A stretch of 63,251 bases of DNA, counting the filler, from Octopus bimaculoides (Eukaryota), in the NCBI RefSeq assembly GCF_001194135.2. It is 5 parts of 5 records of this genome, joined end to end, with 100 filler letters (N's around TTAATTAATTAA, not from the genome) between each part and the next. Parts side by side here need not be neighbours in the genome. Positions count along the whole stretch, not along the records: positions 4,791 to 35,935 come from NC_068985.1; positions 36,036 to 40,520 come from NC_068981.1; positions 40,621 to 60,481 come from NC_068987.1; 2 more parts are not named here. One strand, 5' to 3'. Made by a program: the position numbers and the translations under genes. Positions 8,201-51,163 of the stretch are shown piece by piece. The first letter of the stretch is position 1, and every line of letters begins with the position of its first letter. The notes beneath the pieces are model-generated. The model made no database searches and had not been told where the DNA came from. It was given only the letters and a program-made list of their open reading frames with translations.

Positions 8201-11200
8201 CCGATGCTGAAGTCATTCTCATTAAATTTCAGTTGAAGCTATTAATTGTACTTAACAGGAATTCTCTCTTCCCTTTCCATCTGTATAGCAGCGTTGTGAC
8301 ACTGATGTGGAAGCTATTAAATAATACAGGAGCCAGCTGATGACCTTGTCTAATTCCAGTTTTTATACTGAAGTGCACCTATCAACAACAAATACAGCCA
8401 TCATCTCTATGGAACTGGTGTAGATTCCCAAATAAAATTTGGGACTAGTGACTAAACTTTCTGAGAACATCCTACAAAAATTCCCTGTTTGCAATACCAA
8501 AAACCTTTCATGCGTAGGTAATGAAGGTAATGAACTGATCCTGATGTTCATCTCTTGAAGTTTTCCTTCTAATGAAGTTTATGCTCACTGTTCCATAGAC
8601 TCTGTGGAAGCTACATTGTGACTTTGGTATAGTGTTTTCTGATATTTTCTGTACAAGTCTTTGCAGAATAACCTTGGCCAGATTTTTCCAATAATGAATA
8701 GAGGTACTGTGAACATAATGTTAGAGCAAACTTTGTTTTTGTTAACAATGACAATGTTGGAATCCTTCCAATGTTGAAGTATATATGCCAAATTCCATGC
8801 CTCTGTGATGTGGTGATAAAGCACTTTTGTACAGAAGTGACCTCTCTCTCTCTTTTAAGATCTCTGCTGGAAAATTTGTCCAGTACCAAAGAAAGTTTGG
8901 TGGCTTGCTTAAGTGCTGGATGACACATATACAGTGTTTCAGTACAATTTCATATAAATTATGCCATCACAAATTAAAATATGTAATTATTTTTAACTCG
9001 TTTCAATCACTCTCCAGTTCCAGAAACTATTAATAAATCTTAAATCCAGTAATTATAATTAGTTAAGCTATTATAACTCACTCTCACCTCACTACCAACT
9101 TTCATTTTCCATCTGTCTCTCTAATCATGTTCCTCTCTACAACACTAATCAGCATAAATGTTCACACTTTTGACCCTCTCTCCCCTGCCCCCACAGATTC
9201 ATTTAAGCTACATATTTACGATGTATTCAGTTACATCACCTGTATCAGGTTTAACGTTAAGGGTGGTATTTCTGCTCCAGACATCTGCTGACCCTGTATA
9301 CAACACAAAAGTAACCTCCATGTGATTAAAATCATGTCAAGCAGCACACAGAAGACAAATCTTTACTTCACTCAAGCTAGTGAGGAGCCTCTCTATGTGG
9401 TTGTTTAAAGTGTTAGAAATTGCAGATAAATCTCCTTCAAATCATACCCTGTTTGACTTTGTAACCCAGTGGAGATCATAAAAATTAGTGCTGCACTTGA
9501 CAAACAACCATAGTTATTCACATTGGGTTTGATTTGGTGACATGTTCCATGCTTTTGCTAATTGTTTTAGATGCCTGTGTAGTCACAAATAGGCCAACTC
9601 CATCTAACTTCTATTAAGTTGAATCGGAATAACCAAATAAAAGCATTTATCAGTTTAACAATCAATTTCTATTCACAAATTCCTATCATCAGAGAATTTA
9701 GCATTTATCATTTAGTTTCCATGCTAGTATATATTGAATGAATACATTCTGAGACGTTGTTTTACAGCCAGATACATAAGTAAGGGGATTTTTTTTTCAC
9801 TTTGAAAGTGCAGAGCTATGGGGCGATTTATCAACAGGTAATGTCAACAAATCTAACAATTTCACTTTTGGTGGGGTGGTTGTGTGTGTGTGTGTTTTGC
9901 TTAATCTTTTTCATGTATGGATGTAGAATGTAAACATTCACACACAAACACACACACACAGCTTCCATACTGTTTCCATTTACCAGTTCCACAAAGAGAA
10001 TCCCAACTCCAATATCCACACAACCATACCTGCACCTATATTTTTTATATGCTTTATTTGGGATTTTTTCTTAAGCCCTGCCCTTCTTTTTTTATTTTGC
10101 AGGTGATGGAAACTAAGAAAATGCTCTATTTGGTGACAGAATATGCCCCAAAAGGAGAGATATTTGGTAAGTTTACACATTTCAGGAACTGACTTCTTAA
10201 TGTGCTATATACTCAGGAACTTTTATTTTGTCTCCTAAAACTGAAATGGGGTGCTGGAGTGGGTCAGATCTGAAATGAAATTTTGAATTTAAACAAAGAA
10301 ATTTTATATTTAGTAAAATTTCAGCTACACATTTTTAATTACATTATTTACATTCGATGGATATTTGTCCTCATCTTGTTTGTTGTTAACACAATGTTTC
10401 AACTGATATACCCTTCAGCCTTCTTCAGGTGTCTTGGGGAAATTTCAGACTTGGGTTTTCATTACTAAGGTATTTTTCAATGTAGTTGTTGTTATTATTA
10501 TTATTATTATTATTATTATTATTCAGGTCAATAATAACAATAATAATAACAACATCGAAAAATACCTTAGGAATGAGAACCCAGGTTCGGAATTTCCCCA
10601 AGACACCTGATGAAGGCTGGAGGGTATATCAGCCAAAACATTGTGTTAACAACAAACAAGATGAGGACAAATATCCGTCGAATGTAAATAATGTACATAA
10701 TTCCTCATCTCTTAAATATATAACTGCATTTTTAATTGATTTTAATTTTAAAATTTTGATTTCAGTCGAAGAATTTTAGCTTAGCATTTAAATGCATGAA
10801 TGAATGAGTGAGTCTGTAGGACTATGCGTGTTTTATTATTATTTTTATGGATAGGGTGTGAAGGGGGGGGGGGGCTTAGAGACTTTGGCACACCCACCAC
10901 ATCTCACTACACACAACAGTGTTGTACTACAGCTGTATGTTCTCCCAGGGTCCTCTCCATCTAGTCCTTGATGTCATCATTCATTCTTCATCTTTGTCAC
11001 CTGTGAGACAATTTCCATCCATCCAGCCACTAAAGATGCAGTCAGAGATAACATGGCCAAAATATTGTAATTTTTACTGTCTAATCACTGTCACCAACTT
11101 TTATTCTACTCCCTTATCCTCCTGCACCAAGTCATCTGTTCTACAGGCCACTCAACTAATTTACAGTTCATCTGTAGCAGGTCATCTCAAGCACCCTCAC

Positions 11201-14200
11201 TTGTTTCACACCCATACAATGTTGCTGGTCAGGTCAAAGGACTTAAAGTTGCAGCTTCATGATTTTAACCCTTTCACTATCTAAAGAAAAATGAACAGGT
11301 TCATTTGCCAGGTGTTCCTTATAAAATGGTAAATAATACAGAATTATCCTTTTGTTCTTTTCAGGGCAGCTTTAACCCTTTTGACACCAGCCCTTCAGGG
11401 GCTGCCACTAGTTTCTAGGGTTCAAACTGACTGTTTTTAAGTAATGTAATAAATAAATGAGATCATCATGAGAGCGTTATTAGAGATGGTGTGTTAAGAA
11501 TTTGTAATGGTATTTCAGAGTTTTAAGTTGCCATATTTATGTGTAAAATGTATAGTACAGGACTGTGTCCTTATGCTTGCATGTGTCTGTTTATATTTTG
11601 CTCACTTTTACAAAAGTTGTGATGTATGGGCAGTGTTGTTTTTGTCAGTTCTTCTGTCAATAAGTCATCCACTTGCTTTGTACTTTCAAAATTACATGGA
11701 ATAAGACATTGCTTGCTTGAAAACTAGGTATGATCTAGCAATAGATGGGTATGCAGTTGTAAAACAATGCCTCAGAAATCCATGCTGTCATGGCAAAACG
11801 AACTTGTACCATCTTGTTGTTTTCACCATTTTGATGAATGGCAAAATGAATATTTTGACCAGGAAACCCTGGGTAGTAGTTTTTTGTAAGGCTTGTTGTA
11901 TTATAATAATATATAAATATATAGAGATAGGTTAGGATAGGGCCACCTTCGGTCATGCATGACCATGGAATTGCACCTAGAAAGTTACCCTCCAAGGCAC
12001 AAGTCTGAGCAAATATGTAAATATTAGGTTTGAAAACCCCTGAAAATTGAAGGCTGCCCATGTGGTATGAACCTACATCTCCTGTATACATGACAACATG
12101 TACATGCTATTATTTGTAGCTTTATATGTACTTCAAGATCCAATTCCAAAAAAGAAAAAAGAATTATTCCACATTCTCTCTAAAGTTTATTTTTTATGAC
12201 ATCAGCAGTATACAAGGGTGAAAAAATTGCATTACTTTCTGACTTGCCCTCATCTATATATGTATATGTATATATATATATATATATATATATATATGCA
12301 CACACACACATACATGTGTGTATAAATATATATTGTGTTGAATAAATATACATTGTCAGATCCTTCATTGAAGGATGTTCTTTGAGTCTCTGAAGCTGGT
12401 GTTTATGTGTGTATTCCACTCTGTGTAACAGTTTGTTAATCAAATATATTTGTTATTAAACATATTTGTTGATTAAATGTATTTGTAATTTTTTTGTTTC
12501 TTTAGATTATATTGCACAGAAAGGTCGCATGTCTGAGTCGGAAGCAAGGAAAAAGTTCTGGCAGATTCTTTCTGCTGTGGAGTACTGTCATAATATGCGT
12601 GTTGTCCACAGAGATTTAAAGGTATGACACATAGTTTATTTTGGTCTATGTTTCCTCTAATAGAGAGTGGGCAAAAATCCCACCCAAATTAGCCTTCCTT
12701 AATAAGTGTTAAAACAGCAAGCCCACATCAATTTAAACCATGATGGTAACTAAAAACAAACATATCAAACATTAGCTATATGGACACTGTTATACAGTTA
12801 CACAAGCATCACTCTCATGGCCGCGTAAAATAAGGGAGGATTTTGTGCCACACACTGTATTTAGTGATTTGCTCTGGTCTGTTTCCTCTTTCGTATTTAA
12901 TGGCTTATATTCACAAAAATATTTATGCTGTTTTTAAATTTGTTGTATTCTCTGGTTGTGTGTATGTATATATATATATATATTTTTTTTTTTTATCATG
13001 TTGAACCTTTAATCCCTACACACTTTTTCTCTCTTCATTTTCTTCTCTCTCCGTTTTTTTTTTTCCTTCAACCCTTTCTGTTGAAGAGCATAGGCTTAAA
13101 ATGTCAAAGATGTTTCCATTCTCCTATGTGTTAAACTAATACACCTGCATGTTGTTCCTTCACCAGTCTTCGTCTTTTGTTTACTGTAAATTTGAACTAT
13201 ATATATATATATATATATATATATATAAATATACACACACACACACACACACACACACACACACGCATGCATGCTCATCCACACCCACACCCTCACATTT
13301 TGGTTATTTACTGGGAATTTGAGGTGTGACATTGAACTGAATTCTCAGCTATAATAGTAAAGGGACCAATCAGAAATAAAGATAGGTCATCAGTGCAGTA
13401 TTAGGCTATTTACAAATATCTGCACACGGAGGGCACAGTTTTAGCTGGGTTGCTTTTTGTTAAGGGATACTAAATATCCCTTAACAATGTATCTTTAGAT
13501 ATTGAGTTACCACTTTTGGCACTATGTTCTTTGTATTTTAGTGTGTGTGTGTGTGTACAGGCTTCTTCCACATTATAGGAATGTTACATTCCTGAAAATT
13601 TAACTGTAAGCCGGAATTCTAAAATGTGGATTGTTGAGTTCCATGTTCCATAGAAGTCTGTTGAAAATACATTGTTCATAACAAAAGCATCACATTAAGA
13701 CAGGAATGCAACATTTCTATAATACAGGGGATACCTGTATGTGTATGTATTGATGAGTACAGCCATTCTTAACACATTCCAGCAGGCTTAAACATTAATG
13801 TTCAATGTTTAAGTGTGCCAGAACATGTTAAGAATGATGTATACATTGTTTTGTTGATTGCTGTTTTGCATGCCTTTTATTATTTAATAATCAGTTTGGC
13901 ATCAGCTTTTTTTGTTTATTACTTTTTATAGATAGGAACAGTTGTTCCTAAATAACTCCAAAGAGCCAGTTAGTGTCAATTACTGAGGAGGTGCAACCAC
14001 ATTGAAACACTGGTGTCTAATTGTCCACTGACATCACTTGTAGTGAACATGTTCTTCTACACATTGTCTTTAAGGAGATGTTGTTGTCTGGGATGAAATC
14101 CAACAGTGAAGAGCCATGTTCATGTTTCAATCTACTTGAACATGATAAAAATAGATATACACATTGTTACTTTGATTTTCACTGTTTTTCAAACACATAA

Positions 14201-51018: not shown

Positions 51019-51163
51019 CTTTATTTAAAAGCAGCAGAAATATAACAAAAAACTGTTACTCGGAGTTTCACGTTCCCGTTCATCGGACAGTTTTGTCGAT
51101 GAACGGGAACGTGAAACTCCGAGTAACAGTTGTTTGTTATATTTCTGCTGCTTTTAAATAAAG
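51019..51163. repeat. Near-perfect 145-bp palindrome formed by two head-to-head family G elements
   Basis: Arms of about 70 bp with 1 mismatch, 1 bulge and a 4-nt loop. Confidence 0.95.
51050..51093 (-). ncRNA. Minimal type-I hammerhead-like motif, U4C variant (family G)
   Basis: AAACUGU CCGAUGA ACG ggaa CGU GAAA CUCCGAGUA ACAGUUU; 7-bp stem I, GNRA-capped stem II, near-palindromic stem III, GUA triplet. Confidence 0.6.

Follow-up and report, generated by a model that had tools for sequence, protein, structure and literature searches.

Type I Hammerhead Repeats in the Octopus bimaculoides Genome as Probable 3′ Stubs of Penelope-like Retrotransposons

A 63,251-nt stretch of the Octopus bimaculoides genome (NCBI RefSeq assembly GCF_001194135.2; five parts joined end to end by 100 filler letters, hereafter the window) carries short repeats that fold into minimal type I hammerhead ribozymes. 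We consider it likely that these units are dead-on-arrival 3′ stubs, that is, pseudo-long terminal repeat (pLTR) ends, from at least six to seven families of endonuclease-bearing Penelope-like retrotransposons (PLEs), each with the type I hammerhead typical of the class. A first-pass annotation, made from the sequence alone, had described four families (D to G) as a community of non-autonomous PLE- or retrozyme-like elements. Their PLE identity agrees with every structural feature that can be tested in the window. Three further motifs are called H, I and J here, and single loci are named by family and kilobase position (D10, G51).

Hammerhead Motifs

The window was searched with a strict type I descriptor, which tolerates U4C, A6U and a single inserted base and asks for a stem I of at least 4 and a stem II of at least 3. 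Our descriptors were tailored to the motif of the first-pass annotation and were written after its claim had been read, and they therefore favour that claim. The strict form matched four loci, whereas 40 local dinucleotide shuffles averaged 0.05 (maximum 1). When longer loops were admitted in a scored scan, five loci reached a score of at least 12 (0.13 in 30 shuffles) and nine a score of at least 9 (0.6 in 30 shuffles). The type I hammerhead motifs in the window are real and exceed the shuffle expectation. Three of them, at 13.98, 22.05 and 4.47 kb, had been overlooked earlier; two are among the five best scored motifs (H, 13983+; J, 22053−), and the third, I, lies under the threshold of the scored scan. 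The folding z-scores of 11 tested segments (−2.04 to +1.38) are unremarkable, which is expected because these ribozymes are minimal. The 150 of 175 Rfam matches listed include no hammerhead family; they are only microsatellite- or hairpin-driven microRNA matches, all below gathering score.

The repeats themselves lie where the first-pass annotation had placed them: D in three copies that are 89–94% identical, E in two (71%), G at two loci (88%) and F at one. The claim that each copy folds into a minimal hammerhead survives for three of eight copies, namely those that match the strict descriptor (D 44447+, E 22269+ and G 51086−). The other five are decayed ribozymes, changed mostly at CpG. G12 is lost (G12A) in D 10607 and in E at 13.08 kb; D 10428 has lost the stem III pairing; F combines G8A with a U-U pair closing stem II; and an A-C pair closes stem II in G 37316. 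Likewise, the AUAU at 44.4 kb, which had been listed as a distinct stem III, derives from ACGU by double CpG decay and not by covariation, because ACGU is the majority stem III of family D, with C and G at these places in 77% of the depth. The hammerhead architecture is common to unrelated families in the window (Table 1). The E ribozyme at 22.2 kb combines A6U with an inserted A and an ACGU stem III, and its unit stands head to head with J. In J, a 77-nt GT..AG stretch that resembles an intron (22054–22130) precedes the ribozyme and ends at stem I. H is present as a single copy in the window, sense to a kinase pre-mRNA and within an intron; it could cut that pre-mRNA if it is active.

Table 1. 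Features located in the window, by family; other features last
Positions	Strand	Feature	Remark
10330–10340	+	Target-site duplication of the D fold-back, left copy, 11 nt	Same 11-mer at 10727–10737
10341–10529	−	D left (inverted) arm, short 3′ end	Decayed hammerhead 10388–10433
10530–10695	+	D right arm	Hammerhead 10602–10647 with G12A (CpG decay)
10696–10726	+	Optional D tail, 31 nt, on a single arm	Fits loose-end consensus in RNA reads
10727–10737	+	Target-site duplication, right copy, 11 nt	
44157–44240	−	Start of inverted D arm (GAACTG, then AAT/AAC runs)	Enters assembly gap (N)
44247–44322	+	tRNA-like head with Pol III A box (44254) and B box	Ends GACCTG; box scan
44323–44536	+	D body: (AAT/AAC)n spacer, unique part, short 3′ end	Hammerhead 44442–44487
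13034–13185	+	E copy, (TA)n at a distance on both sides	Decayed hammerhead (G12A); 71% to 22.2 kb copy
22220–22375	+	E copy	Descriptor-intact minimal hammerhead 22264–22300
21723–21799	−	F left arm, starts at outer 5′ strand of stem I	Decayed hammerhead (G8A)
21796–21914	+	F right arm to 21837, from stem II/GAAA junction; possible tail beyond, up to (TA)n	Tail inferred
37246–37328	−	G left arm, short 3′ end, starts at stem I 5′ edge	Hammerhead 37279–37324 (U4C)
37329–37433	+	G right arm without most of the ribozyme	Tail of ~70 nt, ends at (TAGA)n
50934–50948	+	15-nt duplication, left copy, in (TA)n; length ambiguous	Same 15-mer at 51164–51178
50949–51096	−	G left arm, ~70-nt tail, starts at stem I 5′ edge	Descriptor-intact hammerhead 51049–51094 (U4C)
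51097–51163	+	G right arm from inside catalytic core, short 3′ end	
13977–14023	+	H hammerhead, canonical core, GUC site	Near-palindromic 10-nt stem III; overlooked earlier
4464–4560	+	I, probable decayed hammerhead (4470+)	11-bp stem II, ~45-nt loop; outside range of first-pass annotation
21938–22160	−	J, canonical-core hammerhead (core 22053), long loop II	3′ end at (TA)n; overlooked earlier
22134–22187	.	Perfect 54-nt palindrome at J 5′ end	108 nt from J core and E core alike
4990–27941	+	SIK-type Ser/Thr kinase host gene	Pkinase exons, UBA_SIK3 match, exon edges
2254–3615	−	Broken RT-like remnant, YRDD motif, interrupted by SINE	6 unnamed homologues (full scan)

Head-to-Head Arms and Their Junctions

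An unbiased search for inverted repeats outside simple sequence (score at least 20, spacer up to 60 nt) returned only four strong short-spacer cases in the window, at 10.5, 21.78, 22.16 and 51.09 kb, and all four carry or adjoin a hammerhead. They account for four of the five fold-back sites proposed earlier; the fifth, at 37.3 kb, is weak, with a 22-nt match and a right arm that has little of the ribozyme. D44 is a sixth fold-back, the remainder of its inverted arm being hidden by N. An inverted, 5′-truncated copy is clear in D10, F and G51 and partial in G37 and D44.

D10 is one insertion, bounded by an 11-nt duplication, with arms 89% alike and a tail on the right arm. Its left arm differs from the family majority at 12 places and its right arm at 5, and only N7 matches a common non-CpG variant. 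On this ground, and because both arms share one rare letter, an origin of the two from different subfamilies was ruled out. The 5′ end of the left arm opens with GACCTG, followed by (AAT)n(AAC)n. The arms of G51 are identical at 66 of 67 positions. Judged by their letters, the arms of D10 and of G51 look like copies of the same source. At each G locus one arm is short and the other ~70 nt longer, with ends at matching positions. One-sided tails are thus found in D (31 nt, in agreement with the reads) and at both loci of G (~70 nt), and a tail is possible in F, where 10 nt of TA in the flank form an ambiguous duplication.

The distance from the turn to the catalytic core falls into two ranges. 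It is 10 and 1 nt in G51, 13 nt in G37 and 14 nt in F; it is 78–102 nt in D10, 108 nt at 22.16 kb and 207 nt in D44. The palindrome at 22.16 kb has 27-nt arms without a ribozyme and is part of J, not of E. Beyond it, after 32 nt of filler sequence, E starts head to head with J, and the pair is flanked by (TA)n on both sides. The J/E join may reflect two different templates, although this is a single case and could be two events. The F, J and E ribozyme units are crowded between (TA)n tracts within 700 nt (21714–22430), an insertion hot spot directly 5′ of a kinase exon.

Family D in DNA and RNA Reads

Positions 44236–44580 were aligned at 85% likeness with two sets of DNA contigs and two runs of raw RNA reads; the depth covers the D body, the head and spacer being skipped as repeats. 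Matches to the ~180 nt of D came from 29,044 and 22,573 DNA contigs and from 7,559 and 6,099 RNA reads. These numbers make D very abundant, though they are not a copy number. Three other CpG sites of the element, one of them at C11.1-G12, show 11–15% decay per position, and the sole common non-CpG core variant among the D rows listed is at N7 (11%), a tolerant position. Loose ends of the reads define two 3′ ends for D. The longer one carries the same letters as 10696–10726, which confirms the optional tail. Elsewhere in the genome, one D locus that is well expressed turns back on itself within stem II/loop II (reads aligned at 44455). A 3-nt deletion in stem III occurs in ~12% of RNA reads, compared with less than 2% of DNA depth.

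D is the only family with a hint of a promoter of its own. RNA polymerase III (Pol III) A and B boxes stand 5′ of D at one locus (44254–44307) and fit the pattern quoted in PMC8969392. The head that contains them is 65–68% like the other heads in the window that resemble heads in short interspersed nuclear elements (SINEs); ARAGORN did not call it a tRNA.

Differences between the RNA and DNA reads were tallied at 34 places (40 of 68 variant rows were listed, and 6 listed rows beyond the D 3′ end were left out). To count as RNA-only, a change had to stay below 2% in X1, a DNA run, and to reach 5% or more in X21, an RNA run. This applied to 17 of the 34 places, and 16 of these 17 changes were A>G or T>C. 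Such changes made up 33 of 63 places in X21 but 3 of 19 in X1. For unstranded reads this pattern is of the A-to-I type, a signature rather than a proof of editing. A massively edited lizard Penelope and a high content of double-stranded RNA (dsRNA) in octopus are reported in PMC5625713. The hairpins of the window are predicted to be stable (−239 kcal/mol for D10 and −122 kcal/mol for G51). The earlier proposal that the fold-backs give long dsRNA hairpins finds support at the level of the family, where D occurs in RNA with an editing-type signature, but this signature does not single out the hairpins of the window. An Octopus sinensis gene model (P0002) begins with ~40 residues that correspond to translated D, placed before a cysteine-rich receptor-like protein; this may be exonisation or an artefact of the gene model.

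Likeness to Known Elements

Published accounts of insertions of endonuclease-bearing PLEs (Penelope/Poseidon, Neptune and Nematis; PMC3846280, PMC8557442) describe much of this layout. Inverted pLTRs in the usual head-to-head arrangement, a 31-bp tail, duplications of 8–10 bp and junction palindromes of 18 and 38 bp are reported in PMC3846280, where self-priming is proposed, and the same layout with (TA)n targeting in PMC8557442. Head-to-head arms with a tail and junction palindromes are already published PLE behaviour (PMC3846280, PMC8557442, PMC4209133). The units in the window share with these insertions the head-to-head arms, the one-sided tail (31 nt in D), duplications of 11–15 nt, a junction palindrome and targets in AT-rich or microsatellite DNA. 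They differ in that the stubs have no attached open reading frame (ORF), in the ~70-nt tail of G and in the tRNA-like head of D at one locus.

The ribozymes lead to the same class. Metazoan PLE hammerheads are described as minimal, with an inserted base after A9, a G-C closing pair, a palindromic stem III and low activity as dimers; most are solo, and some are paired on opposite strands 100–700 bp apart (PMC4209133). Shared features in the window are the inserted base after A9, G10.1-C11.1, a short stem I, a palindromic stem III in D and E, and the prevalence of solo copies with some opposite-strand pairs. Unlike the published examples, E has A6U, G has U4C and a closing pair other than G-C, and H and J have longer stem III. 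According to PMC3088659, U4C lowers hammerhead activity in vitro yet is tolerated in a viroid, and a change at A6 gave low activity. J also resembles the Drosophila virilis Penelope pLTR, whose intron is 75 bp long (PMC2377424) and ends at helix I (PMC4209133): the 3′ end of its 77-nt GT..AG stretch forms the 5′ strand of stem I. J differs in being a single copy with a predicted intron, and the likeness is one of layout.

Proposed Origin of the Units

The repeats, motifs, arms, duplications, tails, family size and RNA signature described above are observed; the enzyme, the order of steps and the cleavage we infer from the work cited. A PLE protein would nick AT-rich or (TA)n DNA on both strands, and reverse transcription would be primed at one of two sites near the 3′ terminus of the RNA, with uncleaved RNA as the template. 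Both-strand cleavage at ATT, two reverse transcriptase (RT) start sites that define the tail and an uncleaved RNA template are described for a PLE in PMC11167929. The two start sites would lie ~31 nt apart in D and ~70 nt apart in G. Both copies would stop early and be joined 5′ end to 5′ end, giving a unit whose arms stand head to head, one of them with a tail, between the copies of a target duplication. One arm ends at the stem I 5′ edge in F and G, where copying may stop by preference; short copies would often end near the ribozyme because it lies within ~100 nt of the start sites. After insertion most cores would decay, chiefly at CpG, and a host transcript running across a unit would form dsRNA that ADAR edits.

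Several results weigh against the origin from PLEs and its proposed course. An autonomous PLE with one of these ends was looked for and not found: D patterns gave 0, 0 and 0 matches in metagenome, genome and viral contigs, and a PLE ORF search with the open-frame peptide of D led to two candidates, of which the one accepted is an Octopus sinensis gene model without RT. The RT remnant at 2.3–3.6 kb is linked to no family. The G tail of ~70 nt exceeds the published 30–40 nt. No target duplication was found for G37, J, E22 or E13 taken singly. No compensatory change in the D stems occurs among the 40 of 68 variant rows listed, and RNA ends do not pile up at the D cleavage site, which is weak evidence in fragmented complementary DNA. 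As for the editing-type signature, the RNA and DNA samples differ and few loci dominate the RNA.

Alternative Explanations

The most serious alternative, which is also compatible with an origin from PLE ends, concerns D and perhaps other families. D could be a true non-autonomous Pol III SINE with a tRNA-like head and a 3′ part taken from a PLE end, copied in trans by a PLE protein; we put the chance of this somewhat below even. The A/B-box head stands directly 5′ of D at 44.25 kb. The D10 arm, inside the unit bounded by the duplication, opens at its 5′ end with the last six letters of this head and the AAT/AAC run, and the inverted arm of D44 does so with one change. Because both inverted arms (10.5 and 44.24 kb) start there, the composite of head and D has moved as a unit at least as far as the hexamer. 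The numbers of matched contigs in the two DNA runs, with the caveat given above, are SINE-like, and schistosome SINE-like elements (Sm-alpha/Sj-alpha; PMC6765202) provide a precedent for a Pol III promoter with a hammerhead. D at 44.2 kb shares with them the promoter boxes 5′ of a type I hammerhead but has a minimal ribozyme, a PLE-type tail and inverted arms, and no tandem arrangement in the window. Against a PLE-driven SINE, the full head is found on one of three body-bearing D copies, there is no read depth over the skipped head and spacer, and a peptide search across head and body gave no candidate. Moreover, PLE endonuclease cuts at ATT (PMC11167929), so that a PLE end could have landed in the (AAT)n tail of a SINE unrelated to it; PLE ORFs also capture (AAT/AAC)n stretches (PMC3846280). 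No tRNA-headed, PLE-tailed SINE appears in the excerpts of PMC8969392, PMC5786205, PMC10886601, PMC6962438 and 10.1101/596502, and no literature on octopus PLE ribozymes or on such a SINE was found with partial coverage that had repeat databases (Repbase, Dfam) and supplements outside it. A bolder version, which we advance only tentatively and with somewhat less confidence, would make D a very high-copy tRNA-headed octopus SINE that is mobilised by a PLE protein and not by a long interspersed nuclear element (LINE), arrives at new sites as finished hairpins and supplies a large part of the dsRNA edited by ADAR. PLE head-to-head units may also arise from two RNA templates, as suggested by the J/E join of two unrelated families in a single (TA)n tract.

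The first-pass annotation had gone further and taken the 5′ edge of the ribozyme as the template-switch point that makes the fold-backs. This strong form we consider unlikely. In G51, G37 and F one arm does start at the stem I 5′ edge (10–14 nt from C3), the turn of the expressed D locus falls within stem II/loop II (loose ends before 44455 in 206 and 179 reads), and one of the two opposite-strand joints listed has an end in stem I (44443). Three of the six window junctions thus agree with the claim, in two families only, and three (D10, D44 and 22.16 kb) lie 78–207 nt off. The partner arms start at unrelated offsets, in the core, at GAAA or past the ribozyme, unlike what a snap-back on stem I would give. 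Stubs of 70–200 nt are moreover forced to turn close to a ribozyme, and the case from the reads comes from 15 of 41 joints listed. Snap-back on stem I was ruled out as a general route: it would place the start of the partner arm just 3′ of stem I, which is not where these arms start.

An origin as non-LTR retrozymes that spread via circular RNAs appears improbable. The units are short and non-coding and carry type I hammerheads, with canonical cores in H and J, and retrozymes are described from molluscs and proposed to be PLE derivatives (PMC7229834; 10.64898/2026.07.22.740005). The head-to-tail arrays of ~300-nt ribozyme units that define retrozymes are, however, absent from the window, where copies are solo or inverted and several are intronic. 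The single joint that goes back along the element comes from DNA contigs only, and there is no circular junction among the RNA joints listed for D, in a library ill-suited to such a search. This part of the first-pass reading, like the label non-autonomous, is not established by the window, which has no tandem ribozyme arrays; 5′-truncation of ordinary PLEs is expected to yield short stubs.

Assembly artefacts, miniature inverted-repeat transposable elements (MITEs) and chance matches have hardly any claim as an explanation. The short-read assembly has many gaps, the G51 arms are nearly identical and the palindrome at 22.16 kb is perfect; the weak folding z-scores would suit chance. An artefact is unlikely because the arms are unequal in length and diverged: those of D and F differ by 11% and have tails. 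In addition, two studies that postdate the 2015 set supplied seven runs containing 0.82–0.90 of the words of 9.9–14.1 kb, a test of the stretch and not of the junction. None of the runs listed as containing this DNA is recorded as RNA, which says nothing about expression. Chance is countered by the shuffle controls, which the motifs exceed. MITE termini would match in an inward-pointing manner at both ends, without one-sided tails, and this counts against MITEs.

PLE stubs remain the reading that we prefer. They add several unannotated PLE-end families and hammerhead variants (A6U, U4C) from a cephalopod genome, at a density of seven motif families in 63 kb. If D were indeed a PLE-driven SINE, the partners of SINEs would widen beyond LINEs, and an animal group noted for its extreme A-to-I editing would have in D a concrete and plentiful dsRNA substrate. 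The junctions of thousands of D copies could bear on how the inverted arms of PLEs form, by self-priming or from two primed copies.

Host Gene and Other Repeats

The window is AT-rich animal DNA with numerous gaps and microsatellites. The placement of the hairpins in host introns, as the first-pass annotation had it, is right for the copies between 10 and 22 kb: introns of the kinase gene contain D10, E13, H, F, J and E22. It is not supported for G37, D44 and G51, which sit 9–23 kb past the end of the long last reading frame of the kinase at 27.9 kb.

The protein-family scan took in 140 of the 440 stop-free frames of the window, and none of those scanned contains a GIY-YIG domain. Besides the broken RT-like remnant of Table 1, a second RT-like fragment at ~60.6 kb (60589–60645, −) matches unnamed proteins, and the proteins matched by either remnant carry asparagine-rich stretches. 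From their motifs both remnants are probably PLE-type; they are tied to no stub. For the remnant at 2254–3615, Pfam gave no RT family, none of 15 word-search candidates was accepted, and all Atlas matches were below 0.9. Family I as an inverted pLTR of this remnant was ruled out, as positions 1–3600 of the window hold no matching copy.

Other mobile elements are common. A weak RVT_1 match (E 0.011) with a YADE motif at 16439–16687 (−) is likely the remnant of an RTE-type LINE. Remnants of Tc1/mariner-type transposases lie at 59671–60386 (−) and 56691–56891 (+), with HTH_Tnp_Tc3_2, HTH_23 and HTH_48 matches below or near cut-off. An imperfect inverted repeat (74–77%) without a ribozyme motif at 13753–13846 is possibly a MITE. 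SINE-like repeats are abundant and form at least three families, several of which have tRNA-like heads; there are many copies in both orientations, among them those at 3577–4050, 19093–19520, 24385–24760, 46282–46430, 49160–49515, 58720–59260 and 62738–63090.

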